DNA from: an uncultured virus (IMG/VR IMGVR_UViG_3300030118_003168) | Taxonomy: Duplodnaviria > Heunggongvirae > Uroviricota > Caudoviricetes | IMG/VR virus record: IMGVR_UViG_3300030118_003168 | Coordinates: 1 to 64,000 of that record | Reading direction: 5' to 3' (one strand) | Length of the DNA stretch: 64,000 nt | In this document: one piece after another, positions 3,777-38,324 of the stretch | How the letters are laid out: each line of letters begins with the position of its first letter | Numbering within the stretch: position 1 is the stretch's first letter | Notes under the pieces: generated by a model | What the model saw: the letters and a program-made list of their open reading frames with translations, nothing else | The model's database searches: none | What the model was told of the DNA's origin: nothing | Program-made: the position numbers and the translations under genes

Positions 3777-3788
3777 TGTGAATATAAG

Positions 3789-3873
3789 TGCTGAGAGCAG
3801 GATTTGAACCTGCGAACCAAATGTGGACAGGAGTTTAAGCCCTGCGCTTTTAACCATGCTCAGCCATCTCAGC
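3789..3873 (-). tRNA. trnL: tRNA-Leu (anticodon TAA)
   Basis: Acceptor GCTGAGA/TCTCAGC+A; anticodon arm CAGGG-CTTAAAC-TCCTG; long variable arm; T arm GCAGG-TTCAAAT-CCTGC; CCA not encoded. Confidence 0.93.
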
Positions 3874-4445: not shown

Positions 4446-4913
4446 TCATTCATCAGATGGCAAAAGGCTTTCAACTGAACCATCCCAGTTTCCGTCCTTA
4501 AACATCTTAGATAGGTTATTACGGGTTCTTTTAACGACTGCTGAAGCATAATCTTCAGCACCCTCGTATGAACCGCCACCACTCTTAATGTGCTTCATGG
4601 TGATTGCACCAATAATTGCATCATGGTTGTAGTATTGAACACTTGCTTCTTCAACAACACCGCAAATGCGGTCAATTGCTACTCTAACGGAAGCAGGAAC
4701 AGCAGATTTTTGACCCCTTCGGAAAGGTGTTCCATCTCTACCCTTTAATAGAGCCTTTAATGCGCCTAAAGCAGCATCTCGCTCATTTGGGTTGTTCTGT
4801 CCTATTTGTAGGTTCAATTCAACAACTTGGCGCAATCCAGCATCCAAAGTCGTGTCGGCTTCAAGGTATTCGTTCACTTCAATAACAAGTGAATCCCATT
4901 GTGTGTTATCCAT
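4446..4913 (-). CDS. Hypothetical protein, distant paralog of 7491 and 9387
   Basis: RRGQKSAVP, GGSY and FKDGNWDGS align with RRGRESALP, GGAY and YKEGRWDGS. Confidence 0.7.
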   Translation of the reverse strand: MDNTQWDSLVIEVNEYLEADTTLDAGLRQVVELNLQIGQNNPNERDAALGALKALLKGRDGTPFRRGQKSAVPASVRVAIDRICGVVEEASVQYYNHDAIIGAITMKHIKSGGGSYEGAEDYASAVVKRTRNNLSKMFKDGNWDGSVESLLPSDE

Positions 4914-5139: not shown

Positions 5140-5680
5140 GTTGAAAGTGGGAATTTTTCATATGAATTATCACCTTTGAGAAGATTCTCAAGATACGATA
5201 AAGTTAGATTCTTCGCATTTGTGTTGCATAACTGATTAAAAATGGCTGTTTTTGATTGAGGTTTCTCACTTTTCTCGTTTCTCACGATTCTCAATAGGTC
5301 TTTCTGTCTATTACTACATAACCCCTAAGAAACTGATAGCATAAGTAAGAAGAAATTAAGGGGTAAGTAGTAGTAGAAGAATGAATGAATGAATGAGAAA
5401 TGAGAAAATTGAGAAAAGTAAAAAAATATATTACTTATGTCTACATAACCCCTAAGATTCTTGCTTGACTTACATTTCGCACTTGCACAATCGGATGAGA
5501 AACCTAAATTAAATCATTATAATATAATATTAATATTAGAATATGAATACGAATTAATATAAGACCAATTGAAAATAAGATAGAGAAAGAGTAACTATTC
5601 TGAGGGGTGAAAAGTTATCCCTGATAGCAGGAATGAATATACTCTCATTTAGGATAAATCTGCGTTTTATGACGCATTCG
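5140..5680. repeat. AT-rich divergent intergenic region with iteron-like repeats (candidate origin/control region)
   Basis: 17-bp direct repeat CTACATAACCCCTAAGA at 5314-5330 and 5441-5457; clustered TTCTC(A/G) on the left, inverted TGAGAA copies on the right; (GAAT)n run. Confidence 0.5.
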
Positions 5681-5754
5681 CTATCATATGGTTGTAAATT
5701 GCTTTGCAATTAAGACCCTATATGCCGCAATCAGCCCGTTGTTGAAGTGATACT

Positions 5755-6474
5755 ATGTCTATACAATATGTAAGAACAATGAAGATTAATTACGGAGATA
5801 AAATGAACGAACTGGATTTTAACAAACTAAATGGTGCTTTGGCTGAAAAAGGTGTCTATTTGATTGACTCTTTTAGCCGTGTTGATACTGATAATTACGG
5901 TTATGTCCATGTTGAAGAAAACACTACTGTTTATGGAATTGTTATTGAAAATGAAGTCCAATTTACTGTTGATTGGGAAAGCGATGCAAAAATCATTACT
6001 GATGGTCTTTACAACCTTCACAAAGATTGCCACTACAATGAAATTAATACTACTGTTAAAACCCAAAAGTGGGCTGAGCCTGAAGGAACTCAATTACAAT
6101 TTACAATTCCTCTTGACGGTGAAGTTCAAAATTTTGACTGTTGGGGTAATAACCACATTCTTTATGAAAATGGTGCAAAAATGTATGCTTTCCTTGAGAA
6201 TGATTATATCGGAATGGTTTTGCGTTTCCGTGTTGTTTGGGAGCAAGAGAATGTTCAGCGAAAAGAAGCCATTGAAGACGCTATGGTTCAAACCGTTCTA
6301 AATGACATGGGTAAAATACAAAAAGCCGTTGAAAGCCGTCTTAAACTCAAAAAGTTTGGATATAATGTTGAAGAAGTCGGAATTGATTGTCATTTCGATG
6401 CTAAGACCGAATCAAGGTCAGAATGCGCTCCAGACATCATTAAACAAGTTAGGGAGGCAAGAAAGGGTAATTAA
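5755..6474 (+). CDS. Hypothetical protein (cassette 1)
   Basis: 239-aa ORF between palindromes; followed by a CCCC-ACA-GGGGG hairpin. Confidence 0.75.
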   Translation: MSIQYVRTMKINYGDKMNELDFNKLNGALAEKGVYLIDSFSRVDTDNYGYVHVEENTTVYGIVIENEVQFTVDWESDAKIITDGLYNLHKDCHYNEINTTVKTQKWAEPEGTQLQFTIPLDGEVQNFDCWGNNHILYENGAKMYAFLENDYIGMVLRFRVVWEQENVQRKEAIEDAMVQTVLNDMGKIQKAVESRLKLKKFGYNVEEVGIDCHFDAKTESRSECAPDIIKQVREARKGN

Positions 6475-6577
6475 AGCCCTTAAATCCGTAAGACCCCACA
6501 GGGGGCAGGGTTATTGCAAAGCATAACCATATGGTTGTAGTTACTTTGTTATACGGAAACCATATATTTCATTGTTC

Positions 6578-6860
6578 ATGTATTACTGTCGGAAGTCATG
6601 AGCCGACAGGGATTGACTGAATACCCTCAAGGTCGGGGGTAAAGTGCTTGTTTTCGTGTGGTGCGACATATGAACACCTAATGCCCGTATGGGTGAGGGT
6701 TTTCCTCTATGAAAGTGATTAAGGCTCAAAAGGCGCATTCTTACCAAGAATGTTCATAAACAAGGCAGATAGGCTCTTAAGATATAAGAGCGACCTAAAG
6801 TGAGTGCGACCCAATCGTATCTATCTTAGTGATACTCAATTCACTATCCCACCCTTTTTA
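6578..6860 (+). ncRNA. Structured non-coding RNA candidate (cassette 2)
   Basis: No ORF of 60 aa or more; stems CTGTCGG/CCGACAG, CATTCTT/AAGAATG, GCTCTTA/TAAGAGC and long-range TATGAACA/TGTTCATA; cassette promoter upstream and hairpin downstream. Confidence 0.55.
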
Positions 6861-7047
6861 CTCCATTTATGCCCTTAAGCGAAGAGAAAGCGATGATAGA
6901 GGCTGAAAAAGGCACATATGTATAAAAATATCAATTACCATCAAGATACTTCCCTGTGCCCCCTTTTGGGGTTTAATGCAAAGCAACACCATATGGTTTT
7001 AGAATCTTTGATGATAAAACCCTATATCTCACCAATTACCGTTTATC

Positions 7048-7326
7048 ATGTGCAAAGATTGTGTAAGAGCATTGAATACTATTAGCAACGGAATGTCCAA
7101 GTTTCTCCGAGATGGTTTTGAAACCGCTATCATGCGAGATATGTCTCCCGAAATGAATGATGAGGAAGGAATGTTCCATTTGTTCATTTACGAATTGGTT
7201 GCAGAAACAGCGAAGCATGTCATTGATATGACCGTTATGGAGGAATTGACCTCTAAATTAATGGATTCTCTCATGGAGGCCGCTATTGATTCCGAATTAC
7301 GCAGATTCCAAGATAAGCATGCTTGA
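7048..7326 (+). CDS. Hypothetical protein (cassette 3)
   Basis: ATG about 25 nt after CCCTATAT (leaderless); followed by a TGGCGAGG/CCTCGCCA hairpin. Confidence 0.7.
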   Translation: MCKDCVRALNTISNGMSKFLRDGFETAIMRDMSPEMNDEEGMFHLFIYELVAETAKHVIDMTVMEELTSKLMDSLMEAAIDSELRRFQDKHA

Positions 7327-7490
7327 ATCCCTTTGGCGAGGTTTTTCCCTCATTTTTCCCTCGCCATCGGGTTATCAAAGCAAACCATATGGTTGTAAAT
7401 ACTTTGGGTTTACAACCTTATGAATCATTAAATCCCAATATACGCTTCAAGGGGCGAAAGACTTGAAGAACACAACAGGAGGAATATATT

Positions 7491-8030
7491 ATGAAGATTA
7501 AGAACTGGAACATGAATACAAGCAAGGTTCGGGCATGGGCTGAAAACCAACCCGAATCGGATAACTTACAGGCTGTCCTACTTTCTCTCACATTGGGAGA
7601 TAATGCGGCAACTGATGAACTAAGAAGCACTTATTGGACTGCAATTCGTTCAATTGGCAGCACTATGCCTAATTTTCCGAAGGCTCGTCGTGGGAGAGAA
7701 TCAACGCTTACCGACAATCAAGAAATTGTATTGGCGACTGTGGAGGAAAAAGTAGCGGCTGCTTATGCATCAATCCCTACTGAATACCATGACATTCTAT
7801 TGTCTGTAATCGTCCCACACGGGCGAACTGGTGGAGTTTACGCCAGTATTGATGATATGGTCGCAAATTACAAGAAACAAGCACATAACTACATTATGCA
7901 GTCATTGAAAGACGGTAGAGTGGCTTTGACTGATGAAGGCGAATTTGACCTTGATAAGTCAGGTATGCTACAAATCACCCCTCGTCCAACTAAAGACGAG
8001 GATTCCGAAGGAGGTTCGGAAGACGAGTGA
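7491..8030 (+). CDS. Hypothetical protein (cassette 4), paralog of 9387
   Basis: Shares RSTYWTAIRSIGS, FPKARRGRES and PHGRTGG with the 9387 protein; GGAGG RBS. Confidence 0.85.
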   Translation: MKIKNWNMNTSKVRAWAENQPESDNLQAVLLSLTLGDNAATDELRSTYWTAIRSIGSTMPNFPKARRGRESTLTDNQEIVLATVEEKVAAAYASIPTEYHDILLSVIVPHGRTGGVYASIDDMVANYKKQAHNYIMQSLKDGRVALTDEGEFDLDKSGMLQITPRPTKDEDSEGGSEDE

Positions 8031-8142
8031 TTCGGCAAGGATTTCGCCCCTTGTCGCCCCTTGCGGGGGGTTTACACAAAGTAAAACCATATGGTAGGGC
8101 TTTGTTCTACCTTACGATATATCACCGATTTTAACGGTTATC

Positions 8143-8427
8143 ATGCGAAAGATTACAGAAGACGCAATAAGAGCATTTAGAAACAGACAAGAATTTAAGC
8201 GAGGAAATACTGAAGTTAGGGTTTTTGGGCATCTTTGCCAACTTCGCCTTCATGGAAATGTTATCGCTGAAGATAAAGACGGAGAATTGTGGATTACATC
8301 GGCAGGTTGGGAATCAAACACTACAAAAGAGAGACTTAACGGTTTACCTACTGTTTCAATCCATCAAAAGGATTACCAATGGTATTTAAACGGTAATGTA
8401 TGGGATGGGGAATGGATATTAATTTAA
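8143..8427 (+). CDS. Conserved phage hypothetical protein (cassette 5)
   Basis: GNTEV, LHGNVIA and GWESNTTKERLN motifs that I recognise from small phage proteins. Confidence 0.75.
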   Translation: MRKITEDAIRAFRNRQEFKRGNTEVRVFGHLCQLRLHGNVIAEDKDGELWITSAGWESNTTKERLNGLPTVSIHQKDYQWYLNGNVWDGEWILI

Positions 8428-8603
8428 GGAATACTGTGGAGAGCGTTTTTGATTGTTTTCGCTCAGGTAATGGAGCCACGCATAGGGTAAATGTGCAAAT
8501 AGCCGAAATAAAAAACAATCCCCGCCTTTGGGTAAAGACAAAGCAATACCATATGGTTGCACTTTGAGCAACCCTATACATACTACTCATTTAATCGTAT
8601 ATC

Positions 8604-8924
8604 ATGGCTAACCAATACAATGTTGCACTTTGCGCTGGACGACACGAAATTAAGACAAATGGGGGAGTTAGTGTCCCTAATGCTATTTATGAGCATATTC
8701 AGAACCCTATGGATTTTGATTTCCTAGAAGGTCGTGCTAGTGATTTTATATATCATTTGGAAGATAATAATGTTGAGATTCTAAATCTCTACATTACTGG
8801 TTTAACTCCAGCATTAACCTCATTTTTGGCATTAGCAAGCAATTGGGAGGGAAAAATTACATTGTGGCACTTTGACCGTGATTCTTTCACTTATATGCCT
8901 CAATACTTTCAAAACTGGATGTAA
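8604..8924 (+). CDS. Hypothetical protein, possible CARF/Rossmann-like fold (cassette 6)
   Basis: LCAGRHEI, LYITGLTPAL and LWHFDR motifs; fold assignment is inference only. Confidence 0.6.
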   Translation: MANQYNVALCAGRHEIKTNGGVSVPNAIYEHIQNPMDFDFLEGRASDFIYHLEDNNVEILNLYITGLTPALTSFLALASNWEGKITLWHFDRDSFTYMPQYFQNWM

Positions 8925-9006
8925 TCCGCCCCTTCGGGGGTATTACCAAAGATACTACCATATGCTTTGTAAGAGAGTGGTTAAGCGACGGATTCGGCCT
9001 ATTACC

Positions 9007-9249
9007 ATGCGAGCAACCCTAACAAGCGATTTATTCCACAAAGGAAGCGAGAAACTGGTTATCAAGACCTGTGCCGAGATGTTGAACTATATGCCCCAAA
9101 TTTACGGGTTTATCAAAGATATCGGGGTTGAAGCCAAATTGACCTCAAATATGTATGATGCCAGCATTGTCATTCGTGGCGAGACACTTATGCCAAACAT
9201 TGACAAAATCGTCAGATTCATTGAAAGTCATGGCTGGCAAAAGAATTAG
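9007..9249 (+). CDS. Hypothetical protein (cassette 7)
   Basis: Start re-placed at ATG 9007 (MRATLTSDLF), downstream of the palindrome at 8947. Confidence 0.65.
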   Translation: MRATLTSDLFHKGSEKLVIKTCAEMLNYMPQIYGFIKDIGVEAKLTSNMYDASIVIRGETLMPNIDKIVRFIESHGWQKN

Positions 9250-9386
9250 GGCTTGCGCCCGCCTTTACAAAGCATATGGTTGTAATCGCTTTGCGCTTGT
9301 GTAATTACAACCTTATCCGTCATTTGGTTGGTATTAGTGCTTCGGAAGGCATTGAGGCAGATTTCCCCTTATTGGAGGTAATTATT

Positions 9387-9893
9387 ATGAATGAAAAGAA
9401 TTGGATAAAAAACACAAGTGAAGTCAGTCTATGGCTTGAAAAGGAAGATAGAGGTGATAATGGCAAGGCTATTGAATTGTCTATTATGCTCGGAAACAAC
9501 AGTAATGACGACGATATGCGTTCAACCTATTGGACGGCTATTAGGTCTATTGGGAGCGTTTATGCGGATTTCCCAAAAGCCCGTCGAGGTCGAGAATCTG
9601 CTTTGCCCGACGAAGTGGAGCAAAATGCGATTTCTGTGAAGAATGCGGTTTACGCTGCCTTTGCGGGTATTTCTAACCAAGATGTCGTTTTGGCTGCGGT
9701 TTTGCCACATGGTAGAACTGGCGGTGCTTATGCTGATATTGACGCATTGGCTACCCATTACGCCAAGCAAGCGTATAATGCGCTTGTAAAGGGCTACAAA
9801 GAAGGTCGTTGGGATGGTTCTATGAACGGTGAAATCCCGACAATGACCCCACCTGCTGTTAAATCAGCCGAAGGAGGTCAAGAGGAAGAATGA
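9387..9893 (+). CDS. Hypothetical protein (cassette 8), paralog of 7491
   Basis: GGAGG RBS before ATG 9387; shared motifs with the 7491 protein. Confidence 0.85.
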   Translation: MNEKNWIKNTSEVSLWLEKEDRGDNGKAIELSIMLGNNSNDDDMRSTYWTAIRSIGSVYADFPKARRGRESALPDEVEQNAISVKNAVYAAFAGISNQDVVLAAVLPHGRTGGAYADIDALATHYAKQAYNALVKGYKEGRWDGSMNGEIPTMTPPAVKSAEGGQEEE

Positions 9894-9913
9894 TGCGGAA
9901 ATGCCTTCCGTCG

Positions 9914-9930
9914 CCCCCTTCGGGGGGTTT
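9914..9930 (+). terminator. GC hairpin CCCCC-TTCG-GGGGG-TTT ending cassette 8 (similar hairpins end the other cassettes)
   Basis: Related hairpins at about 6494, 6959, 7334, 8057, 8520, 8929 and 9249. Confidence 0.55.
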
Positions 9931-10333
9931 CCTCTACGATGGCAAAGCCAAACCATATGGTTGTTGTAATGTATATATAGACTATATATGGTTCATTATA
10001 GACGCTAAATGGATTATTTAGGGATGTATGACTCGGAACATAACATTTAACAGTTGCGTGATGCGTTCTATAGAAATCTATTCAAATAGCGCATATAATT
10101 CTATTCGATGAAATAAATCTATATATATTGCAATTTATCTCAATAGACTATATACAACCATATGGCTTTGTTTCAAATTTTTTATTTTTGTTCATTTAAA
10201 TGAATAAGCATTAATTAATCAATTTTAAACCAAAAAGCATTTATTCCACTACTTTAAAACATTAATTAGTTTAGATTAAAGGTTATTCCGAGCATATTAT
10301 ATGCTATGACTTCCACCCATTAAGTGATACAGT

Positions 10334-10564
10334 ATGTCTGCCGAGAAACAGGCATTAACTTATTTAGATGAGATATTCACCATAATACGAGAAACCCTTG
10401 AAGATGCTAAACAAAACAGAAAAGATGCTAGACAACTTACTAATTCAGAAGAAAAGGCTTTACAAGAAATATTAAAGAAGATTAAACTAATATCAAAGAA
10501 TTTAGACGATTATCTTAAACAGTTTAGAATACAAACTTCATTATACGATTTTAAAGAAGATTAA
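10334..10564 (+). CDS. Hypothetical coiled-coil protein
   Basis: ORF track. Confidence 0.6.
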   Translation: MSAEKQALTYLDEIFTIIRETLEDAKQNRKDARQLTNSEEKALQEILKKIKLISKNLDDYLKQFRIQTSLYDFKED

Positions 10565-10718
10565 ATATACTTATTTAAACTATTATAATTAAACTATATG
10601 TTTTTATTCTGGGAATATAAATCTATATAAAAAAATAAAAACGCAAGTGCCAAATAAATTCCGCCACAAAATTTTGAGATTTTTTTTATTATAACGAATT
10701 AACAGGAAAAGGATTAAT

Positions 10719-12026
10719 ATGGAAGATTGGCAAAAAGATATTATGGATGCAATTGAATCAGGTAGATGGCAAGCCGAAGATTTAAGCGATATTGCTGTTC
10801 CAAGAGCAAAAGTAAAATCTATTCCTGTTAATGATATGGAGTTTATTCTTGATATTGTGTATTTTGCCGCTAGAGAATTAAGAGGAAAGAAATTAACTCC
10901 TGAACATAAAGAATTACTTGATGAATATGATGATGTTCTAAGAAATCAAGGAATGAAGGGTTTTCACGATGCTAATGTTCAAACTCACGCTTTTAATAGA
11001 GATGAAGATACTGATGCAAGAGATGAAAAATACTATCCAAATGACCCATTACACTATGAATCAAAAAGACCCGATGTTTTTAAAAAAAGTTGGACTGATA
11101 TTCTAAAAACACCTTATCCTAATCATATGTTAAATAGAAAGGCAAGGGGCGGAAGAAGAATTAGAAGGGGAACTGGAAGGGGCGGTTTATTCAAATATAA
11201 CGAAATTGATGAAATATTAGAAGCCCGTGTTACTCCTTTAATTGATGCTCGCTATGAACAAGAAATTGAGAAGAAAACTCGTCAAAGTATTAGAGAAGCA
11301 AAAAAGCGTCTTAAAGAAAGTAATAAAGAGTTTACTGATATTTTAAAGGACTATATTACTCGTAAGGTTAGAAAGGTTTTACTTAAGCAGAAAGAAAACA
11401 ATTTATACGCTACTGCATATGGAGATTATGCAAAAAGCGGTATGGGCTTCAAAAGTGCAGGAAAGTGGTTCGCTGGAGGATTAAGTGCATTAGGCTATAA
11501 TCCCGAAGATGAACAACAAATGAGTTATGTTTTGAGAAGAGTTCACGGAATTGCTAGACAATACTTCAATGATTGGAAATCTAAGAAAGAAAAAGAAGAA
11601 GAAGAATCAGACGAAGAAGAAGGTGATGAATTGGTTAAATCATGGATTAATATAATTAAGAAAGAATCTTGGTATGATAAACAAGTTAAGCAGCAAATAG
11701 ACGCAAAAAAGCAAGAGCGTCAAGCCCATGTTAAAAAGCACCCATTTACTAAAGATTACCGATATGGCCGTTGTCAGGCAAATGATGGAACAGGCTGTAT
11801 TAGAAATCTACAAAGTCCTGAAAGAAGGTCATATGCTGGTTCAAAACCCGATGGTAGAACTTGCATGTATTGTGAGGATGACCATTACAAATACGGTGAT
11901 GTTCCTAAAGAAATTTGGAGTTCTGAACAATGGAAAAAGGGCGACAAAGAAACAAGAAGCAAGATGTTGGATAAATATGTTAAAAGAAATCCAAGATACG
12001 ATATGCGAAACTTTGAACCATTTTGA
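10719..12026 (+). CDS. Hypothetical multi-segment protein with internal WxxILK motifs
   Basis: Internal KSWTDILK and KSWINIIK; Cys/His cluster near the C-terminus. Confidence 0.75.
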   Translation: MEDWQKDIMDAIESGRWQAEDLSDIAVPRAKVKSIPVNDMEFILDIVYFAARELRGKKLTPEHKELLDEYDDVLRNQGMKGFHDANVQTHAFNRDEDTDARDEKYYPNDPLHYESKRPDVFKKSWTDILKTPYPNHMLNRKARGGRRIRRGTGRGGLFKYNEIDEILEARVTPLIDARYEQEIEKKTRQSIREAKKRLKESNKEFTDILKDYITRKVRKVLLKQKENNLYATAYGDYAKSGMGFKSAGKWFAGGLSALGYNPEDEQQMSYVLRRVHGIARQYFNDWKSKKEKEEEESDEEEGDELVKSWINIIKKESWYDKQVKQQIDAKKQERQAHVKKHPFTKDYRYGRCQANDGTGCIRNLQSPERRSYAGSKPDGRTCMYCEDDHYKYGDVPKEIWSSEQWKKGDKETRSKMLDKYVKRNPRYDMRNFEPF

Positions 12027-27937: not shown

Positions 27938-29578
27938 ATGGCAAATGAAAAAAGAAGATTTTCCTTTACTAACTTATTTAGGCGACAAACTCCCAAACCT
28001 GCGGATAGAACAGTCTATAATATGGGTATTCAAGAAAGAGAAAACCGTCATATGATGACTGGCCCATTACTCTATAATATTATGAATCAATCAGTAATAG
28101 GTAGAACTTGTATTACTCAATTAAAACAAGAAGTTTTTCGTAGAGGATATATTTGGGAAAAAGCCTATGAAGCAAGATGTAATGATTGTGGAAAGGAACA
28201 TAAAAGACCTGTTCAAGAATGCGCTCGTTGTGGAAGCACTAATTTAAAAATACCTGATGAAAAACAATTAGAATATGCTGAAAAGTTTATTGAAGGTTAT
28301 GTTAATAATTCTGAACAACTATTTATTGATGTATTACAGGAACTAGAAGATGATTTAAATATTATGGACGATGCTTACATTGTCATGGTTAAAGAGTATT
28401 TCTTGGACGGTAATCAAGATATAAGAATGCATAGGATTAAAGAACTATATAGAGGCGACCCAGTAACTATGTTTATTTATACTGATGAATTAGGACAAAG
28501 AGGAACTAAAGGATTTACTTGTGTAAATCATAGAAATGCCTTGCATACCGAACCTCATCAGCCTTGTGATATTTGCGGAGCAAAAACATTTCCTGTTCAT
28601 TATGTTAATAGAGCAAACGGTGAAGAACAGTATTTCTTGAAAGGAGAAGTTCTTCATTTCAGTAAATATAGCCCTTCAAGACTCTACGGACAATCACCAG
28701 TCGTTACTTTATTTAATGCTATTATGACATTAATTGCTATGGAAAACTATGTTAATTCATCTTATACTAAGAGTCGTATGCCAAGAGGATTACTCGCAGT
28801 TCAAACAAGAAATATGGATTCAATGCGTTCTTTTTGGAGAGGGGTAAAAGAAAAGATGGAAGCAGACCCTCATTTTATTCCTGTTATGGGAATAGAAGCA
28901 GAAGGCGGAAAAGGTGCGGTTGAATGGATTAAATTCATGGATAGCCTAAAAGAAATGGATTATGTTTCTGTTAAGGATGATTTAAGGGATAGAATTTCTG
29001 CATTCTTTGGAGTAAGTAAAGTGTTTATGGCTGATAATACAACAAGCGGTGGATTAAACAATGAAGGTATGCAAATTCTTGTTACAAATAGAGCCGTTCA
29101 AAAAGCACAGACTGTCTATAATAATTATGTTTTCCCATTCCTTGTAAAACAATTTGGTATTACTGATTGGAATTTAAAACTACCACCAAGCGAAGAAGAA
29201 GATGAAATTGCTGTTCTTCGTAAGAGAGAAATTGAAGTTAATATTGCTGCTTCTGTTAAGAATTTAGGATTTGAAGTAGATATGGATGAAGAAGGTCAAT
29301 TTACTTTCAAAAAGCCCGAACCTGAAGAAAAACCTCAAGGGGAAGGAGAAGAAGATAAACCAGTAGATAAAGACCCTTATGCGGGAACTAATATTGATGC
29401 TTCACAATTGGGACAAATGCAGGAACAAGCATTACAGGGAAGTAAGCCGCAACAGAACCCTGCGACAACTAGAAATAAGCCTTCTATGAATCAAGGCCCA
29501 GACAAGAGACTAACAGGATTACCGTTAGATGCGGGAAATCAGAATAATGATAAAAGAACCGAAAGGAGAGTGGGTTAA
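27938..29578 (+). CDS. Portal protein with Zn-ribbon insertions
   Basis: Position after TerL; EVLHF...YGQSPV and RISAFFGV portal-like motifs; CNDC/CARC and CVNH/CDIC inserts. Confidence 0.88.
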   Translation: MANEKRRFSFTNLFRRQTPKPADRTVYNMGIQERENRHMMTGPLLYNIMNQSVIGRTCITQLKQEVFRRGYIWEKAYEARCNDCGKEHKRPVQECARCGSTNLKIPDEKQLEYAEKFIEGYVNNSEQLFIDVLQELEDDLNIMDDAYIVMVKEYFLDGNQDIRMHRIKELYRGDPVTMFIYTDELGQRGTKGFTCVNHRNALHTEPHQPCDICGAKTFPVHYVNRANGEEQYFLKGEVLHFSKYSPSRLYGQSPVVTLFNAIMTLIAMENYVNSSYTKSRMPRGLLAVQTRNMDSMRSFWRGVKEKMEADPHFIPVMGIEAEGGKGAVEWIKFMDSLKEMDYVSVKDDLRDRISAFFGVSKVFMADNTTSGGLNNEGMQILVTNRAVQKAQTVYNNYVFPFLVKQFGITDWNLKLPPSEEEDEIAVLRKREIEVNIAASVKNLGFEVDMDEEGQFTFKKPEPEEKPQGEGEEDKPVDKDPYAGTNIDASQLGQMQEQALQGSKPQQNPATTRNKPSMNQGPDKRLTGLPLDAGNQNNDKRTERRVG

Positions 29579-33160: not shown

Positions 33161-35680
33161 GTGGTATTATTGAAACTTGGTTCTATTGAAAAGGATAGGC
33201 AACCCTCTATTGAGTTGATGCGCCTTTTTGAAAAGACAAGAGTTGCCTATTTATCAGCCGTTCAAGACCCCGATGAGTATTCGGGTCGCTGGCGTAAAGC
33301 CGTTGAAATGATTGAAGAATCTTATGATGAATTAGATGCCGCAGGTAAAGAGTTAAAGAACTTCATTAGAGAAGAAGAAATAACCGCTAACGAGGTAAAA
33401 GACCCTCAATCATCTAAAGCACAGAATCTATATGAAAAAATTAAACTTGTTAGATATACTTCAAAAATTATTGCTGACCCCTTCGCTGAAATGTTCAAAG
33501 GTAATGTTCTTGAAGAATTATTAAATAATCCTGAAAACATGCTTAAATTTGTGCATTATGCTATGAGGGAAGACAATAAAGCCCTATCAGCAGACATTTT
33601 GGCGATTAAAGACATGCAACCTGACACAATTACGGAGGGTCTTATGGGTCTTGACCTACAAGTGGACGACATACCCCTCTATATTATTGAGCATTACGGG
33701 GATGGAAAAGACTCAAAGAAGGTTGAAAAGAAAGTAAAGGCTGCTATGGATATGTTAGAGTTAATTTTCTTTTCTCAGCACGAAGAAAAAGAATGGGAAG
33801 AACTTCAAGATATTGACATGCAAAAGTCAGAAGAAAAATCAATAGAAGAAAAATCAGTTAGTGATTTTATTATACCTAATAAACCAATGTATCGAATATT
33901 TGAAATAAAAGATATTAATGAATTAAAAGGATTTAGTGGGAACTGGTATATCCAAGAAAAATATGATGGCATGCGTATTCAAATACATAAGTTAGATAAT
34001 AAAATAAAGGTTTATTCTTATAATAAAAAAGATATAACTGAAAAGTGTGATGAAATAGTTAAAGAACTAAAGAAGAAAGAATATGGAGATTGTATCTTTG
34101 ATGCTGAACTTATTCTATTTGATGGGGAAGAAGCACTTCATAGAGCCGATACAATCGCTCATGTATTCAAAGGTAAATATAAAGATGCTAAATTAAAATG
34201 TCATGTCTTTGATATTATGCGACATGAAACACAGACATTACTTGATGAAGAACTTGATAATAGAATGACAATTTTATTCAATAATTATTCTGCTAAATCT
34301 TCAGAATATCTTAATTTCCCTTCAAAGAAAGATACAAGGCAAGCAGATAGTCTTGAAGATTTAGAAGAATATTCAAAAGAAATTATGAATATGCCTACTT
34401 CTGAAGGAGTAGTCATTAAAGACGCTACTTCAACCTACTACTTGGGAACAAAGAAAAATCCTAAGTGGATTAAAATGAAAAAGTTTGTTGATTTAGATGT
34501 TATTGTATTAGATAAGAAAAAGACTAAGAGCAATCTTTATTCTTATACTGTCGGTGTTGGGCCAGTAGATGATGAAACAGGACAAGAAATAGATGGAAGA
34601 AAATATCTAAATGTAGGTAAAGCCCTAAATACAAAAATCGCAGTTGAAGTCGGAGATATTATTAGAGTAAAAGTTGATGAAGTTAAGAAGAAGGGCGATG
34701 GATTTAGTTTATTCTCCGCAAAGGTTATTGAAATACCAGAAGTAGAGCATCCCGATAAATTAGTTACTCTTGAATTATTATCAAAAGATACTAAAAAATC
34801 TTTGAATTATAATGTTGAAGCATTTAAAAAAGGAGTAAAGGTTACTGATTACATTCATGGGGAAACTACTGCTATAATCAAATTTGATACAGATGGTTTT
34901 GTTATTTATGGTTTTGAAGAAAATAATTTAATGTCAAAAAATGCATTAAGAGATATTGATATGTGGAAAGCCAAAGCCGAAGAAATAATGAAAACAAAAC
35001 AAGGTAGACTTACTGTGGCTATTGTAAACTTTTTACAAGAAAAAGGAGATAGAACTCCTAAAGAAGTCCATGATTATTTGAAAGCAAAACACGCTGATAT
35101 ATATGAAACTGTATTAGATTCTCAATTAAGAAAGTTAGGTAAGTGGGCGCAAGAAAGAGAGCATATTAAAATGATAGGTAATAAATTGCATGCTGACCCG
35201 ACAATTAAATTGGCTGATGAAGATAAAATAGAAAAACAATATAAAACTCCTGATGAATATAGAAAAGGTAAATTTAAAATCTATAATAGAGAAGATAATA
35301 ATATTCATTTAGCAATTAGTGTAAATGGCGAAAATATGAATTGGACTATTGATTTAGAAGATGAAGAAGAACTGTTTGATTTATTTGGTGCGGCTGGTAA
35401 ATATCCAGCAGAAGTATCAAAAAATGTAGAAAGAGGAAAAGTTATTGATTCTGGAGATATAGAACTAGGTGTTCAAAAAGACGGCTATCATGAATATTTC
35501 TTGAAAGGAAATAAGTTTGAAACTAAAATGCATATTAGAGTTATTCCTATTGATAATAAGCCGATGTGGTTAGCATGGACTGGATATAAACAAGAACCTG
35601 CTGATACTGAGGGAGATAAAGGAAAGTGGAATATATATGAAGATAGGTATAATAAATTATCCATACCGACTGAGGATTAG
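33161..35680 (+). CDS. lig: ATP-dependent DNA ligase with N- and C-terminal extensions
   Basis: Motif I EKYDGMR, III IFDAEL, IIIa VFDIM, IV EGVVIK, V WIKMKK, followed by an OB domain. Confidence 0.9.
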   Translation: MVLLKLGSIEKDRQPSIELMRLFEKTRVAYLSAVQDPDEYSGRWRKAVEMIEESYDELDAAGKELKNFIREEEITANEVKDPQSSKAQNLYEKIKLVRYTSKIIADPFAEMFKGNVLEELLNNPENMLKFVHYAMREDNKALSADILAIKDMQPDTITEGLMGLDLQVDDIPLYIIEHYGDGKDSKKVEKKVKAAMDMLELIFFSQHEEKEWEELQDIDMQKSEEKSIEEKSVSDFIIPNKPMYRIFEIKDINELKGFSGNWYIQEKYDGMRIQIHKLDNKIKVYSYNKKDITEKCDEIVKELKKKEYGDCIFDAELILFDGEEALHRADTIAHVFKGKYKDAKLKCHVFDIMRHETQTLLDEELDNRMTILFNNYSAKSSEYLNFPSKKDTRQADSLEDLEEYSKEIMNMPTSEGVVIKDATSTYYLGTKKNPKWIKMKKFVDLDVIVLDKKKTKSNLYSYTVGVGPVDDETGQEIDGRKYLNVGKALNTKIAVEVGDIIRVKVDEVKKKGDGFSLFSAKVIEIPEVEHPDKLVTLELLSKDTKKSLNYNVEAFKKGVKVTDYIHGETTAIIKFDTDGFVIYGFEENNLMSKNALRDIDMWKAKAEEIMKTKQGRLTVAIVNFLQEKGDRTPKEVHDYLKAKHADIYETVLDSQLRKLGKWAQEREHIKMIGNKLHADPTIKLADEDKIEKQYKTPDEYRKGKFKIYNREDNNIHLAISVNGENMNWTIDLEDEEELFDLFGAAGKYPAEVSKNVERGKVIDSGDIELGVQKDGYHEYFLKGNKFETKMHIRVIPIDNKPMWLAWTGYKQEPADTEGDKGKWNIYEDRYNKLSIPTED

Positions 35681-35723
35681 TTGTTCTTTATATACCAGTA
35701 AGCAATAAGAAGGGTTGAGAGGA

Positions 35724-36950
35724 ATGGCATCAACGGTAATGCAGAACAATACCCATGATTTCAGGATTCTAAAAAGCGATAATTTAATGATTGGAGGATA
35801 TGCAAGCATTGAAATCGTTGATAAACAAAATGATTTAATCACACTCAAGGCTCTTAATGAAGCAGTTAAAAAATATATGGAGAACCCTAAATTTAGAAAT
35901 GTAATGACAAATCATTCAAATGTTCAAGTTGGGGAAGTAGTAGAATCATATAGAGATAAAACAGGAAGAATATGGAAAACTGAAGTTGATGATGTTGGAT
36001 TCTTTGTTGTAATTAAATTAAGAGATGATATTGAAAAAGCCAAAGAAATAAATAGAGGCATTCGTAAAGGTTCGTTAAGGTCATTTAGTATTGGAGGACA
36101 AGCATTACAAAAAGTAAAGAAAAACCATCCAGAATTAGGTGAATTTAACGAGATAAGCAAACTAGAACTACATGAGGTTACTATCTGTGAAAAAGGCATT
36201 AATCCTGAAGCAAGGTTTGATATTCTAAAACAAGACAAAAATAAGGTGAAAACTATGAGTAAGATTGAGAAAGCATTGGCTGAATTGGACGCTCTTATGG
36301 AGGAAGTTAATACTCTCCGTAAAGAAGAAGAAGATGAAAAGATGATGGACGAAAAAATGATGAACGAAAAAATGATGGAAGACAAAGAATCCATGATGGA
36401 AGAAAAAATGGGCGAAGAAGAAGATGAAAAGATGATGGAAGATAAAGAATCCATGTATGCTGATAAAGAAGCAAAAGCCCTTCTTTCTACTCTTGATGGT
36501 GCAGGTGTTGAAATCGGTGAACCTGCGGATAGAATTGTTATTGACAATGGAACTCCAAAGGCTTCTGATTTGCCAGTAGTAAAGGCATTTAACAACGATG
36601 AACTTGAAACTCTTGATTTGAGCGTTGCAAACATTGAGAAGGCTTATGAAGCATACCGTCAAGAACAACTTGAAAAATTGGCTTATGATAATCTTCAAAA
36701 GTCTTTTGAAACTCGCTTTGCTAATGAAAGAGCAAACCGTGAGAACATTCTCGCAAAGTCGCAGTATGACGCACAAAGCGAAATTTCTTCTCTAAAGGAA
36801 GAATTTACTGCACTTCGCAAGTCTTTGACGGCTGAAAAGGAAACAATCCTAAAGGCTCAAGAAGACGCTACTGTTAAACTCCCATCAATGGAAGAATTGG
36901 CCGAAATGGATTGGTCAGATATTCATAAAATGGTCGGAGGATTTAATTAA
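35724..36950 (+). CDS. Prohead protease fused to scaffold
   Basis: IGGYAS..IVDKQND, NH, SFSIGG and LHEVTICEKGINPEA (HK97-type protease); acidic coiled-coil C-terminus; directly upstream of the MCP. Confidence 0.9.
   Translation: MASTVMQNNTHDFRILKSDNLMIGGYASIEIVDKQNDLITLKALNEAVKKYMENPKFRNVMTNHSNVQVGEVVESYRDKTGRIWKTEVDDVGFFVVIKLRDDIEKAKEINRGIRKGSLRSFSIGGQALQKVKKNHPELGEFNEISKLELHEVTICEKGINPEARFDILKQDKNKVKTMSKIEKALAELDALMEEVNTLRKEEEDEKMMDEKMMNEKMMEDKESMMEEKMGEEEDEKMMEDKESMYADKEAKALLSTLDGAGVEIGEPADRIVIDNGTPKASDLPVVKAFNNDELETLDLSVANIEKAYEAYRQEQLEKLAYDNLQKSFETRFANERANRENILAKSQYDAQSEISSLKEEFTALRKSLTAEKETILKAQEDATVKLPSMEELAEMDWSDIHKMVGGFN
36324..36439 (+). repeat. 26-bp direct repeat within an EKMM low-complexity scaffold linker
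   Basis: GAAGAAGAAGATGAAAAGATGATGGA at 36324-36349 and 36414-36439. Confidence 0.8.
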
Positions 36951-36962
36951 AGGTGATTTAAG

Positions 36963-38324
36963 ATGACAGGATATATTAACACAATTGCAGATTTAGAAGC
37001 ACAAACATACGGATTAACAGGCCATACTGGTATTAACAACCAATTGCTTAAGCAAGCAGGTTCTATCGCAGGACTTCATACAGGCCATGATGCACCATTA
37101 GGCGTATCATCAACTAATTCCGCAGCAGCAGCAAGTTCGCTTAGTGCTTTGTATAACAAGATTTACGGTCAAAAAGTCTGGTCTATGCTAAACAGGGAAT
37201 GTAATGCACTTTCAGTCATTTCAAAGAGGCCATACACTTCAAGCGGTTGGAGAGTTCTTTCTGAGCGACCTGCTGGTGGTAGCGGTAATTTCCTTGATTT
37301 AACTGGTGTAAATGAAGGAACATCTGATGCGACTATTGGTTCAAATACAATGCGACCCGACTTATTGGGTGGTGTTCCTGAAAATGCGGCACTTTCAACT
37401 GCTGCTGATGGTTTAGCGTCTGTTGCTCCTAAATACGAACTATTGTTCACAAGTCCAAAGATTATTGCTCATCAATTTGAGTTCTCGGAATTGGCTATGG
37501 AAATGGCGCAAATTGACGATGGAATTGGCGATATTAGAGCGCAAATGAGAGAAGACATGGGCAAGCACCATTCAGAAACTCAAAACGCTATGCTCGTTAT
37601 GCCTCTTGAAAACTACAATCTATCGGCTACAAACCAAATTGGAACAATTGAGAGAAACTACACTTCTTTGCTAAAGGTTGTTTCTTCTAAGGAAGAATTA
37701 GATGCTATGGCTGCTGGAACTGTTCTAACTGCTTCAAATTCTGGTGTTGCAGAAATTGAAACTATTTACGGTAAGGCTCGTAGTGCCGCATCTTTCCTTG
37801 ATGCACAGGTTGATTTCGGTGGAGTAGGCTATGCTACTGGAAATGCTCGCTCTTTAACTCTAACTGTTCTAAACAACACAATTAGAGACTTGAGGGTTGC
37901 AGGTGGTTCACCAAAGGTTATTCTAACTGGATATGATACACTTCAAACCATTTCTGACCTATTACAAGCACAAGAGCGATTCATGGACAGAAAAGAAATT
38001 GTTCCTACTGTTAATGGTGTTCGTGGTGTTAAGGGTCAAGAAGTCGGATTTAGAGTTTCAACCTATTACGACATTCCTATGATTCCTGTTGCGGCTATGC
38101 CTTCAACTGGTGCAAATACTTCTTGTATTAGTGATATGCTTTTCCTTGATACAGACCATTTGTGGCTATCTGTTATGAAACCAACTCAATACTTTGAAGA
38201 TGGTATTTCAAACGGAAACCCATTCGGTGTCGGCCATCTTGGAAACAAGGCTCTTTACCGCACTATTGCGGAAGTCGGTTGTTCTTACTTCAAGGGTCAG
38301 GGTAAAATCACCAATTTGCTGTGA
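36963..38324 (+). CDS. Major capsid protein (HK97 fold)
   Basis: 453 aa after the protease; AAGGTGA RBS; PKVILTG, STYYDIPMIP and MLFLDTDHL C-terminal pattern. Confidence 0.88.
   Translation: MTGYINTIADLEAQTYGLTGHTGINNQLLKQAGSIAGLHTGHDAPLGVSSTNSAAAASSLSALYNKIYGQKVWSMLNRECNALSVISKRPYTSSGWRVLSERPAGGSGNFLDLTGVNEGTSDATIGSNTMRPDLLGGVPENAALSTAADGLASVAPKYELLFTSPKIIAHQFEFSELAMEMAQIDDGIGDIRAQMREDMGKHHSETQNAMLVMPLENYNLSATNQIGTIERNYTSLLKVVSSKEELDAMAAGTVLTASNSGVAEIETIYGKARSAASFLDAQVDFGGVGYATGNARSLTLTVLNNTIRDLRVAGGSPKVILTGYDTLQTISDLLQAQERFMDRKEIVPTVNGVRGVKGQEVGFRVSTYYDIPMIPVAAMPSTGANTSCISDMLFLDTDHLWLSVMKPTQYFEDGISNGNPFGVGHLGNKALYRTIAEVGCSYFKGQGKITNLL

Follow-up and report, generated by a model that had tools for sequence, protein, structure and literature searches.

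Genes A and B, two paralogs in a stretch of 64,000 nucleotides from an uncultured virus (positions 1 to 64,000 of IMG/VR record IMGVR_UViG_3300030118_003168; this whole stretch is called the window here), are each enclosed by a 5′UTR and a 3′UTR that are complementary to one another, and this complementarity is strongly conserved via compensatory change. A sequence-only reading of the window had claimed such pairing for these two genes; the claim holds and can be widened to 97 distinct cassettes, every one of which possesses complementary 5′UTR and 3′UTR segments. The most likely role of the pairing is to protect the message or to help its translation and, on balance, I lean towards the view that the A and B mRNAs are panhandles with both ends structured, an arrangement that would serve stability and maybe also the handing back of ribosomes.

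Two genes flanked by complementary arms

Both exact inverted repeats that had been reported are present: in cassette A, CAAGGGGCGAAA (7448-7459) is the exact reverse complement of TTTCGCCCCTTG (8042-8053), and in cassette B, CGGAAGGCATT (9343-9353) is the exact reverse complement of AATGCCTTCCG (9900-9910). As an observation, the end complementarity is therefore confirmed. The features of the two cassettes are as follows.

7415..7424, + strand: TATA-like promoter box of cassette A (ACC + TTATGAA); predicted +1 26 nt after ACC, at 7444
7444, + strand: putative transcription start of mRNA A (G of GCTTC), from RNA contig starts and T(-1)/G(+1) conservation
7445..7468, + strand: alternative 5′-terminal hairpin of A (CTTCAAG 7445-7451, CTTGAAG 7462-7468; core in loop)
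7448..7470, + strand: 5′ arm of the A closing helix (12-bp core 7448-7459, then CTTG, GAA), from repeat search, fold and covariation
7477..7482, + strand: Shine-Dalgarno (SD) AGGAGG of gene A, from sequence
7491..8030, + strand: gene A, 179 aa, without known family
8010..8014, + strand: conserved SD-like GGAGG, 13 nt upstream of the A stop
8031..8053, + strand: 3′ arm of the A closing helix, from the first base after the stop codon onward, from repeat search, fold and covariation
8056..8073, + strand: G+C hairpin and TTT 3′ of the A 3′ arm (3′-end hairpin, terminator-like)
9310..9319, + strand: TATA-like promoter box of cassette B; predicted +1 at 9339
9338..9359, + strand: alternative 5′-terminal hairpin of B (TGCTTC 9338-9343, GAGGCA 9354-9359)
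9339, + strand: putative transcription start of mRNA B (G of GCTTC), from RNA contig starts
9343..9359, + strand: 5′ arm of the B closing helix (11-bp core 9343-9353, 3-nt loop, GCA 9357-9359), from sequence and fold
9387..9893, + strand: gene B, 168 aa, paralog of A (46% identity)
9873..9877, + strand: conserved SD-like GGAGG, 13 nt upstream of the B stop
9894..9910, + strand: 3′ arm of the B closing helix (TGC 9894-9896, loop, core 9900-9910), from sequence and fold
9913..9930, + strand: G+C hairpin (CCCCC TTCG GGGGG) and TTT 3′ of the B 3′ arm

Each exact repeat extends into an imperfect helix of ~20-25 bp that closes the whole ORF. The arms of cassette A (7448-7470 / 8031-8053; 23 nt, 83% complementary in the repeat search) form, from the outside in, 12 bp, a GA/GA 2x2 loop, CTTG/CAAG, an AA/GG loop and GAA/TTC, the last lying directly 3′ of the stop TGA (8028-8030), and those of cassette B form 11 bp, a 3x3 loop (GAG / GGA) and GCA (9357-9359) opposite TGC (9894-9896), which adjoins the stop codon (9891-9893). 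Both stems were said to continue inward to the stop codon through a tandem GA/GA mismatch; the continuation is seen in A and B, whereas the tandem GA/GA holds for A and is replaced in B by the 3x3 loop. When sequences upstream and downstream of the window ORFs are paired, gene A has a duplex energy of -41.2 kcal/mol, by far the lowest among 105 (next -27.9), and that of gene B is also low at -32.1 kcal/mol. Across the cassette set, the median 5′UTR is 48 nt long, the innermost 5′ pair lies ~23 nt upstream of the ATG and the innermost 3′ pair at -2 counted from the stop codon's end. In most cassettes the helix, with 16-30 predicted pairs, starts at or in the stop codon, and the true SD lies ~10-15 nt from its inner end.

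Compensatory change across cassettes

The set comprises 53 distinct cassettes from 32 viral loci together with 44 from metagenomes. All 53 of the viral-locus cassettes possess a perfect core of 7-16 bp, written in many different sequences, and over the full set (n=97) the cognate 5′/3′ duplex stands at -34.9 kcal/mol (sd 4.0) versus -22.0 (sd 5.6) for non-cognate arms, the cognate arm being the best partner in 50/97 and within the top 5% in 85/97. In a 54-row alignment (A2), 88.4% of cells pair versus 70.9% in shuffles, with 0/500 reaching the observed value; core pairs have changed on both sides in 11 of 11 cases, and the covariation score is 0.424 versus 0.156 when shuffled and at most 0.191 when slid. 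Covariation is absent from the outermost GC/GC pairs, and in the MFE the 3′ hairpin competes with them. Furthermore, the A and B arms carried in one genome are orthogonal (cognate -34.9 vs cross -21.5), both cognates being better in 23/26 genomes. Sense duplexes are only weakly better than antisense ones (-34.4 vs -32.6; 34/53 cassettes).

Inverted repeats might also act at the level of DNA, as cassette boundaries for recombination or replication rather than as RNA structure. The location of the cassettes within a shuffled, palindrome-bounded array would suit this, as would a wobble-pair strand test that gave no signal (single mismatches flanked by Watson-Crick pairs: G-U 6, A-C 14, other 53). 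However, arms that are free in sequence yet complementary are the signature of pairing and not of a protein-recognised site, they fall within the transcription unit, the 5′ arm downstream of the predicted +1 and the 3′ arm flanked by the stop codon and the 3′ hairpin, neighbouring cassettes in the same array have no such arms in the duplex scan of window ORFs, and a DNA hairpin would need a loop of 560 nt, which is implausible; I regard a DNA-level role as barely probable.

Predicted folds and the start site

The MFE and centroid folds of both window cassettes keep the closing stem (z -6.5 and -3.4), and the MFE of the full transcript retains at least 8 long-range pairs, and with them the closing helix, in 52/53 cassettes. 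With a mean of -31.2 for the long-range duplex versus -15.5 for both local hairpins summed, and an ensemble probability of 0.90 for pairing of the 5′ core with the 3′UTR (24 cassettes), the end-to-end helix is predicted to dominate the folding ensemble. The alternative local hairpins proposed for the two window cassettes both exist (CTTCAAG/CTTGAAG in A, TGCTTC/GAGGCA in B), and a 5′-terminal hairpin using nt 1-5, with the core in its loop, occurs in 42/48 cassettes; a two-state element is plausible because this competing hairpin has in its turn been conserved, again through compensatory variants.

That there are two conserved conformations which exclude each other, the local 5′ hairpin and the long-range helix, also invites the idea of a hok-like (fold-back inhibition) or icaR-like switch, in which the end-to-end helix would keep the mRNA untranslatable until it is processed or refolded. 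Pairing of the 5′ and 3′ ends is the core of hok fbi. It is likewise central to icaR (PMC7821165). However, the SD and AUG lie outside both structures, the unpaired probability predicted for the SD-AUG window is the same with and without the 3′UTR (0.57 vs 0.56; 24 cassettes) and the product, at 170-180 aa, soluble-looking and all-alpha, is no small toxin, which speaks against the hok-like inhibition that the sequence-only reading had offered and makes a switch quite unlikely.

The position of the stop codon at the base of the helix in most cassettes raises a further reading, closed-loop translation, in which the helix would bring the stop codon beside the 5′ SD, a GGAGG would hold the terminating small subunit and ribosomes would be handed back. 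Such a GGAGG occurs 13-14 nt upstream of the stop in 36/53 cassettes, in frames that read Gly-Gly or x-Glu-Val/Ala, and because it is found in two reading frames it points to selection on RNA rather than protein; the short distance between the true SD and the inner helix end fits as well. In addition, joint action of 5′ and 3′ UTRs is needed for translational control in the haloarchaeal system described in PMC2636863, and termination-reinitiation coupling has been reported for archaea and bacteria (PMC6728339). However, the terminating ribosome must unwind the inner helix, an E-rich acidic C-terminal tail may partly account for the purine-rich codons, GGAGG is absent from the last 45 nt in 6/53 cassettes and the literature search found no experimental prokaryotic precedent. 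Closed-loop translation in general is possible but rather unlikely, and I am doubtful of the specific proposal that the helix, together with a stop codon placed at its base and a GGAGG independent of frame, would hold the terminating ribosome on the message and return it to the 5′ SD in an RNA-only closed loop.

Transcripts and promoters

The RNA data are assembled contigs from four marine metatranscriptome runs (two samples of one study, three of the four runs being from one sample). These contigs, which give neither exact ends nor strand, begin at 7444 in 4/4 runs for gene A and at 9339 (2 runs), 9343 (1 run) and 9437 (1 run) for gene B, covering the 5′ arm in 4/4 runs for A and 3/4 for B, and they end short of the 3′ arm, at 8007 or 8012 for A and at 9869-9889 for B. 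The 3′ arm is thus outside all RNA contigs, with the stop codon on one side of it and the 3′ hairpin on the other. The contig of run X2 has 30 further letters beyond 7444 that are unlike the window. Four other small genes in 7048-9249 have no contig in the four runs, an absence of cover that is no evidence in itself.

Upstream of the contig starts, the blocks CAACC (-31..-27) and TATAC (-25..-21) are conserved in 48 cassettes, with T(-1) in 42/48 and G(+1) in 48/48, and an archaeal-type TATA box with a 26-nt rule predicts +1 at the same bases at which the contigs start (7444, 9339). Elsewhere, the same rule falls on the A of the ATG at 7048 and at most 1 nt from the first base of a manA-like RNA, and by this promoter geometry there are leaderless genes nearby. 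An Rfam scan of 5500-10800 returned manA and no family over the arms. A sigma-70 promoter was also considered and dropped: a consensus scan found none before the arms, promoter-like sites numbered 8 vs 12.7 in shuffles and the conserved upstream blocks misfit sigma-70 spacing.

Virus and probable host

Magroviruses, as described by Philosof et al. (2017; PMC5434244), combine a tailed-virus structural module that has an embedded ATP-dependent DNA ligase with a genome of ~100 kb, a family B DNA polymerase (split in group B), a chaperonin and an MCM-like helicase, and their Marine Group II archaeal host is an inference in that paper itself. The virus studied here fits this description by gene content: an ATP-dependent DNA ligase (33161-35680) is flanked by the portal (27938-29578) on one side and the protease/MCP (35715-38324) on the other, PolB is split over two ORFs at 69.7-71.8 kb of the record, and five complete relatives of 94-97 kb all have a Cpn60/TCP1 chaperonin above cut-off and MCM-like matches, the latter all under cut-off. 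The host is probably an archaeon, for which the evidence here is the promoter geometry, namely the 26-nt spacing between a TATA-like box and +1, the T/G found at -1/+1 and the leaderless genes nearby. A cyanophage or bacteriophage reading, suggested by a Kyano_Gp96 neighbour and the manA RNA, was dropped after the magrovirus traits were tested. The cassettes sit in a shuffled array bounded by the CCATATGG palindrome.

Processing stem or protein platform?

The helix might instead be a site for RNase III, or for archaeal splicing endonuclease acting on a BHB motif with ligation by RtcB, at which the message is trimmed or circularised. With 16-30 predicted pairs it is of a length that a dsRNA nuclease could act on, flanking stems of this kind are used by archaeal rRNA precursors and the virus encodes an ATP-dependent ligase, the one in the structural module, with a weak RNA_ligase Pfam match under the curated cut-off. 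However, most archaea are not known to have RNase III; motifs like the BHB (bulge-helix-bulge), in which a 3-nt bulge lies on either side of 4 bp, are not enriched (36/97 vs 31% in non-cognate controls) and are mostly slipped versions of continuous helices, and the contigs start at the outer edge of the helix, at the promoter-predicted +1, and not within it. Similarly, no back-joined (circular) contig over A or B was seen in the four RNA runs, a weak point since contigs drop rare forms. The circularisation once suggested thus finds little in its favour, and a processing stem in general seems very unlikely.

The proteins encoded by A and B might themselves bind the helix, or the junction at the stop codon might be a kink-turn bound by L7Ae, with autoregulation as the outcome in this protein-platform reading. 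An archaeal host, if it is one, would have L7Ae, and a pattern scan for a 3-nt bulge and a tandem G.A/A.G set between a canonical and a non-canonical stem does find the kink-turn claimed for window cassette B (AAG-AAT-GA-TG opposite CA-GA-TTT, a sequence pattern only). However, the claim does not generalise: most B cassettes have a plain helix, GCATCA opposite TGATGC, K-turn-like patterns are found in 37/97 cassettes vs 24% of non-cognate controls and at heterogeneous positions, and the stop-codon type seen in window B occurs in ~11/97. A protein platform is highly improbable.

The A and B products are soluble-looking, all-alpha proteins of 168-179 aa and not small toxins, the all-alpha fold being that of the AlphaFold model (pLDDT 80). 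Pfam and PHROGs gave no family, tblastn against a phage collection gave no match, the structure matches are unconvincing (best Foldseek PDB E 0.08; best VIA wide Z 8.1, to generic three-helix bundles) and the best ESM Atlas score, 0.86, was to clusters without a name. The C-terminal tail is acidic and E-rich.

A proposed panhandle

In the panhandle that I favour, gene A (7491-8030) and gene B (9387-9893) would each be expressed as a single-gene, leadered mRNA, in which nt ~5-30 of the 5′UTR (~48 nt) would pair with ~25 nt beginning at or in the stop codon, with a short G+C hairpin 3′ of the 3′ arm. During synthesis, the 5′-terminal hairpin would form first and show the G-rich core in its loop and, once made, the 3′ arm would capture this loop and give the more stable end-to-end helix, so that the 5′ end would always be helical and the 3′ region would be locked too. 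The SD and AUG would be free in both states. The likely purpose would be protection of both message ends against exonucleases that depend on free termini, yielding long-lived, highly expressed transcripts, and stabilisation, among the functions that had been suggested, would fit best. Stability may also be coupled to translation, because each terminating ribosome must melt the inner helix.

Comparison with known systems

In the hok mRNA (fbi/tac), the two ends of the full-length message, 5′ and 3′, pair with one another and local structures are available as alternatives; the cassettes are alike in their predicted end-to-end pairing and local alternatives, and unlike in having no predicted RBS sequestration and no small toxin ORF. 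Intramolecular 5′-3′ UTR pairing is otherwise known for a handful of bacterial mRNAs only (hbs, icaR and RNAIII besides hok), as single-species cases with little conservation.

In the Bacillus subtilis hbs mRNA, a 14-bp 5′/3′-UTR interaction modulates RNase Y cleavage (Braun, Durand and Condon, 2017; PMC5737220), and there as here a single-gene mRNA has its ORF looped out by a long-range helix of 5′UTR and 3′UTR, which in hbs (~14 bp) is reported to affect ribonuclease access and not the RBS (PMC5737220). Unlike in hbs, the helix here is longer (~20-25 pairs), begins ~5 nt into the RNA and adjoins the stop codon, the probable host is an archaeon, and conservation is deep and covarying over two paralogs and ~100 cassettes, whereas the hbs 3′UTR is described as unconserved in close relatives (PMC7821165). 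The Staphylococcus aureus icaR and RNAIII are likewise prokaryotic RNAs with intramolecular 5′-3′ UTR pairing (PMC3868564, PMC7821165); in icaR, as described, the 3′UTR covers the RBS and makes an RNase III site (PMC7821165), whereas the helix of the present cassettes leaves out the SD and AUG, with no change in how accessible they are predicted to be. For a haloarchaeon, the 5′ and 3′ UTRs of one mRNA were reported to have to act together (Brenneis and Soppa, 2009; PMC2636863), and no UTR-UTR base pairing is demonstrated in the account given there, whereas here the pairing is the conserved feature. Like the PeSL cassettes of T4-type phages (PMC2839356, PMC4122927), these are small single-gene units with a repeated hairpin and promoter motif between them; unlike in PeSLs, which are described without 5′-3′ mRNA pairing, the motif here is the CCATATGG palindrome with a TATA-box-type promoter.

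Literature searches found no published description of the arrangement, and two magrovirus papers are silent on UTRs, hairpins and palindromes. What is distinctive here is that a whole ORF is enclosed by pairing that runs from a few bases off the RNA 5′ end to the stop codon, and that this pairing is kept up by compensatory change in two paralogs and ~100 natural variants of an abundant uncultured ocean virus whose host is probably archaeal, which places it among the best comparative cases for a functional prokaryotic mRNA panhandle. The cassettes offer a ready-made natural set of orthogonal arm pairs for experiments, and a way to test ideas on how mRNA is stabilised and translated in Marine Group II archaea and the viruses that infect them, so far uncultured. 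If the closed loop were true, eukaryotic mRNA circularisation would have a prokaryotic equivalent in an archaeal virus, one that arose with neither cap nor poly(A).

A helix that closes around each gene

The sequence-only reading held that pairing of the 5' untranslated region (UTR) with its 3' counterpart encloses two paralogous genes, A (7491-8030, +) and B (9387-9893, +), and reading the sequence directly recovers both of its exact inverted repeats:

7448-7459 with 8042-8053, + strand: exact inverted repeat of cassette A (reverse complement, 12 nt)
9343-9353 with 9900-9910, + strand: exact inverted repeat of cassette B (reverse complement, 11 nt)

By repeat search, the arms of cassette A extend to 23 nt (7448-7470/8031-8053, 83% complementarity) and run through 12 bp, a GA/GA loop, CTTG/CAAG, an AA/GG loop and GAA/TTC touching the stop codon. 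Cassette B has an 11-bp core, a 3x3 loop in place of a clean tandem GA, and GCA/TGC immediately past the stop. The closing stem is retained in the MFE and centroid RNA folds of both cassettes (z -6.5 for A and -3.4 for B), and the duplex between sequences upstream and downstream of gene A (-41.2 kcal/mol) is by far the lowest among 105 window ORFs, the next being -27.9. At 8043-8063 (+), cassette A carries TCGCCCCTTG twice in tandem: the last part of its 3' arm repeats the first half of the hairpin that comes after it, so that either copy could serve as partner for the 5' arm, in competition with the 3' hairpin; this duplication was seen only in the nearest relatives (L003, L004 and similar).

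Homologs were collected as gene plus flanks from 32 viral contigs, nearly all of which carry both A and B (53 distinct cassettes), and 80 metagenome loci brought the pooled total to 97 distinct cassettes. A perfect core of 7-16 bp is present in the arms of 53/53 cassettes of the viral set, while its sequence diverges widely, for example CAAAGGAGTAACAAAC with GTTTGTTACTCCTTTG, CGGTAGGCAT with ATGCCTACCG and CGAGTGGTAGTGA with TCACTACCACTCG. The mean duplex energy is -34.9 kcal/mol (sd 4.0) between arms of the same cassette and -22.0 (sd 5.6) between arms from different cassettes (n=97); as a partner, the cognate 3' arm ranks first in 50/97 and within the top 5% in 85/97. Covariation was tested at 13 named pairs in alignment A2 (54 whole cassettes, MAFFT), where 88.4% of cells are paired compared with 70.9% in shuffles (0/500 reach the observed value), each of the 11 core pairs has changed on both sides, and the covariation score is 0.424 versus 0.156 shuffled and at most 0.191 with the partner slid; the two outermost GC pairs of this alignment show no covariation. 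Arms of A and B from one genome are orthogonal (cognate -34.9, cross -21.5), both cognate pairings beating the cross pairings in 23/26 genomes. In the MFE folds of full-length transcripts, 52/53 cassettes show 8 or more long-range pairs, and pairing of the 5' core to the 3'UTR has a mean ensemble probability of 0.90 (24 cassettes). The 5'-3' pairing, compensatory changes included, is real and under selection.

The cassette array and its transcripts

Genes A and B lie in an array of single-gene cassettes (6527-10165) that resembles the PeSL cassettes of T4-type phages:

6587-6855, + strand: manA-like RNA (Rfam RF01745, 52.4 bits, E 1e-11)
7048-7326, + strand: neighbouring cassette gene, no Shine-Dalgarno (SD)
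8143-8427, + strand: neighbouring cassette gene, no SD; product matches Pfam Kyano_Gp96 (E 1e-19)
8604-8924, + strand: neighbouring cassette gene, no SD

The array is a G+C island (0.41-0.42 versus about 0.33) in which each cassette head consists of CAAAG-N5-ACCATATGG(T), a variable hairpin whose loop contains CTTTG, and a TATA-like box; there are 7 copies of CCATATGG in the array (0.44 expected) and none in the rest of the window. Assembled contigs for the region come from four marine metatranscriptome runs (two samples of a single study); they cover A, B and the manA-like RNA, with none over the neighbouring small genes. Contigs over A start at 7444 in 4/4 runs and those over B at 9339 (2 runs), 9343 (1 run) or 9437 (1 run), these being contig starts that fix neither the exact end nor the strand; 1-3 unaligned letters precede 7444 and 9339, and in run X2 30 contig letters beyond 7444 do not match the window. 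Each of 7444 and 9339 falls on the G of a GCTTC that is conserved. The sequence upstream has blocks common to 48 cassettes, namely CAACC (-31 to -27), TATAC (-25 to -21) and TTAgT (-5 to -1), and these cassettes also share T at -1 and G at +1. A spacing of 26 nt, measured from the ACC in the TATA-like box, predicts starts at 7444 and 9339, the same bases as the contig starts, as well as at the A of the ATG at 7048, position 8600 (4 nt upstream of the ATG at 8604) and 6588, within 1 nt of where the manA match begins; the ATG at 8143 lies about 5 nt from its predicted +1 (hand count). Starts at or near +1 and the lack of an SD imply leaderless mRNAs for these neighbours, unlike the leadered, SD-bearing A and B. 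Archaeal promoters combine a TATA box with a pyrimidine/purine initiator, and the conserved blocks with their spacing fit this geometry; they do not fit a sigma-70 promoter.

Whether the pairing acts in RNA was approached through wobble pairs, which gave no strand signal (G-U 6, A-C 14, other 53), and through folding, which is only slightly better for the sense strand. GGAGG stands 13-14 nt ahead of the stop in 36/53 cassettes (within the last 45 nt in 47/53) and is read in two frames, as Gly-Gly or x-Glu-Val/Ala, which argues for selection at the RNA level. Action of the pairing in RNA is well supported, and not proven, because contigs end at 8007 or 8012 for A and at 9869-9889 for B, leaving the 3' arms outside their cover.

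The manA-like RNA scores just below its gathering score (55.2), and RNA contigs over 6660-6854 are 50-100x deeper than over A and B. In run X2, a single contig of 158 letters, at a depth of about 967, runs from 6854 back into 6727 (+); since 158 = 128 + 30, it looks like a cycle of 128 nt in a graph with k=31. It points to a 128-nt RNA, circular or present as tandem repeats, that derives from the element's 3' half in a close relative (6 mismatches). The manA RNA was described in marine phages and bacteria (PMC2864571), and finding its like in a probable archaeal virus is unexpected.

The genes and their virus

Proteins A (179 aa) and B (168 aa) share 46% identity, match no Pfam or PHROG family in profile searches, and belong to a family for which marine data gave 241 homologs; AlphaFold predicts an all-alpha fold (pLDDT 80), and structure searches returned no convincing relative. 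Elsewhere in the window are:

4446-4913, - strand: third, distant A/B paralog (155 aa, ~28% identity)
3788-3873, - strand: tRNA-Leu gene, anticodon TAA

The third paralog is present in many relatives and has a small hairpin beside its SD, and its flanks lack 5'-3' complementarity. A reading of the 73.7-kb record as a bacteriophage was dropped in favour of a probable magrovirus on ligase position, PolB and the chaperonin of relatives. The ATP-dependent DNA ligase (33161-35680) sits within the structural module, portal on one side and protease/capsid on the other; two distinct ORFs (552 and 300 aa; record 69707-71757, -, outside the window) match family B DNA polymerase, which fits the split polymerase described for group B magroviruses (Philosof et al., PMC5434244); and five complete relatives (94-97 kb) all encode a chaperonin, with weak, below-cut-off MCM-like matches in 5/5. 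Ligase, PolB, chaperonin and MCM-like are among the magrovirus features given by Philosof et al. (2017; PMC5434244), who inferred an archaeal host, and the host here is probably an archaeon.

Two conformations and a possible function

The putative mRNAs have 5'UTRs of ~48 nt whose first paired base lies at most ~5 nt from the 5' end; the helix ends ~23 nt ahead of the ATG, leaving the SD free, and its 3' side extends into the stop codon (median innermost pair 2 nt inside), followed after the 3' arm by a short G+C hairpin and TTT. The alternative 5' hairpin that had been proposed does exist, as a conserved second conformation: nt 1-5 pair locally in 42/48 cassettes, exposing the core in an 8-13-nt loop, with compensatory variants (GCUAC/GUGGC, GGCAC/GUGC, GCUCC/GGAG, GCUCA/UGAGU, GACUUC/GGAGUC, GCGUC/GACGC). 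The long-range duplex (-31.2) is far stronger than the two local hairpins together (-15.5), and this holds in 52/53 cassettes. By analogy, the arrangement looks like an intramolecular form of loop-mediated antisense pairing.

Fold-back inhibition of the hok kind finds no support, nor does an icaR-like block of initiation, as the SD-AUG region is predicted equally open with (0.57) and without (0.56) the 3'UTR. Circularisation is not supported by BHB-like motifs, which show no enrichment (36/97 cassettes against 31% of non-cognate controls); the 4 runs gave no back-joined contig over A or B, and contigs can miss rare forms. The kink-turn is present as a pattern in cassette B of the window and is not a general feature: such patterns occur in 37/97 cassettes versus 24% of non-cognate controls, at differing positions, the stop-codon type in about 11/97, and in the majority of B cassettes that junction is a plain GCATCA/TGATGC helix. 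The GGAGG hints at a role in translation, and combined with a helix abutting the stop codon it would allow closed-loop translation with ribosomes handed back, a model that I consider unlikely. For function, I infer that a panhandle with a permanently structured 5' end fits best: the local hairpin would form first and the long-range helix afterwards, keeping the 5' end helical throughout, and the panhandle would also lock the 3' region. A leaderless message would not tolerate 5' structure, which may be why, within the array, the panhandle is limited to the two genes that have a leader and an SD.

Relation to known systems

A literature search found no published description of the A/B panhandle, and the text of magrovirus papers, as searched, has no mention of UTRs, hairpins, palindromes or secondary structure. 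Relatives in kind are hbs, through its 5'-3' UTR pairing, and hok. Others are icaR and RNAIII (PMC7821165) and the functional 5'/3' UTR interplay of haloarchaea (PMC2636863). What sets the present case apart from all of these is that the panhandle encloses the whole ORF and adjoins the 5' end of the RNA as well as the stop codon, that covariation attests its deep conservation, and that it occurs in two orthogonal paralogs, in a virus whose host is probably archaeal.
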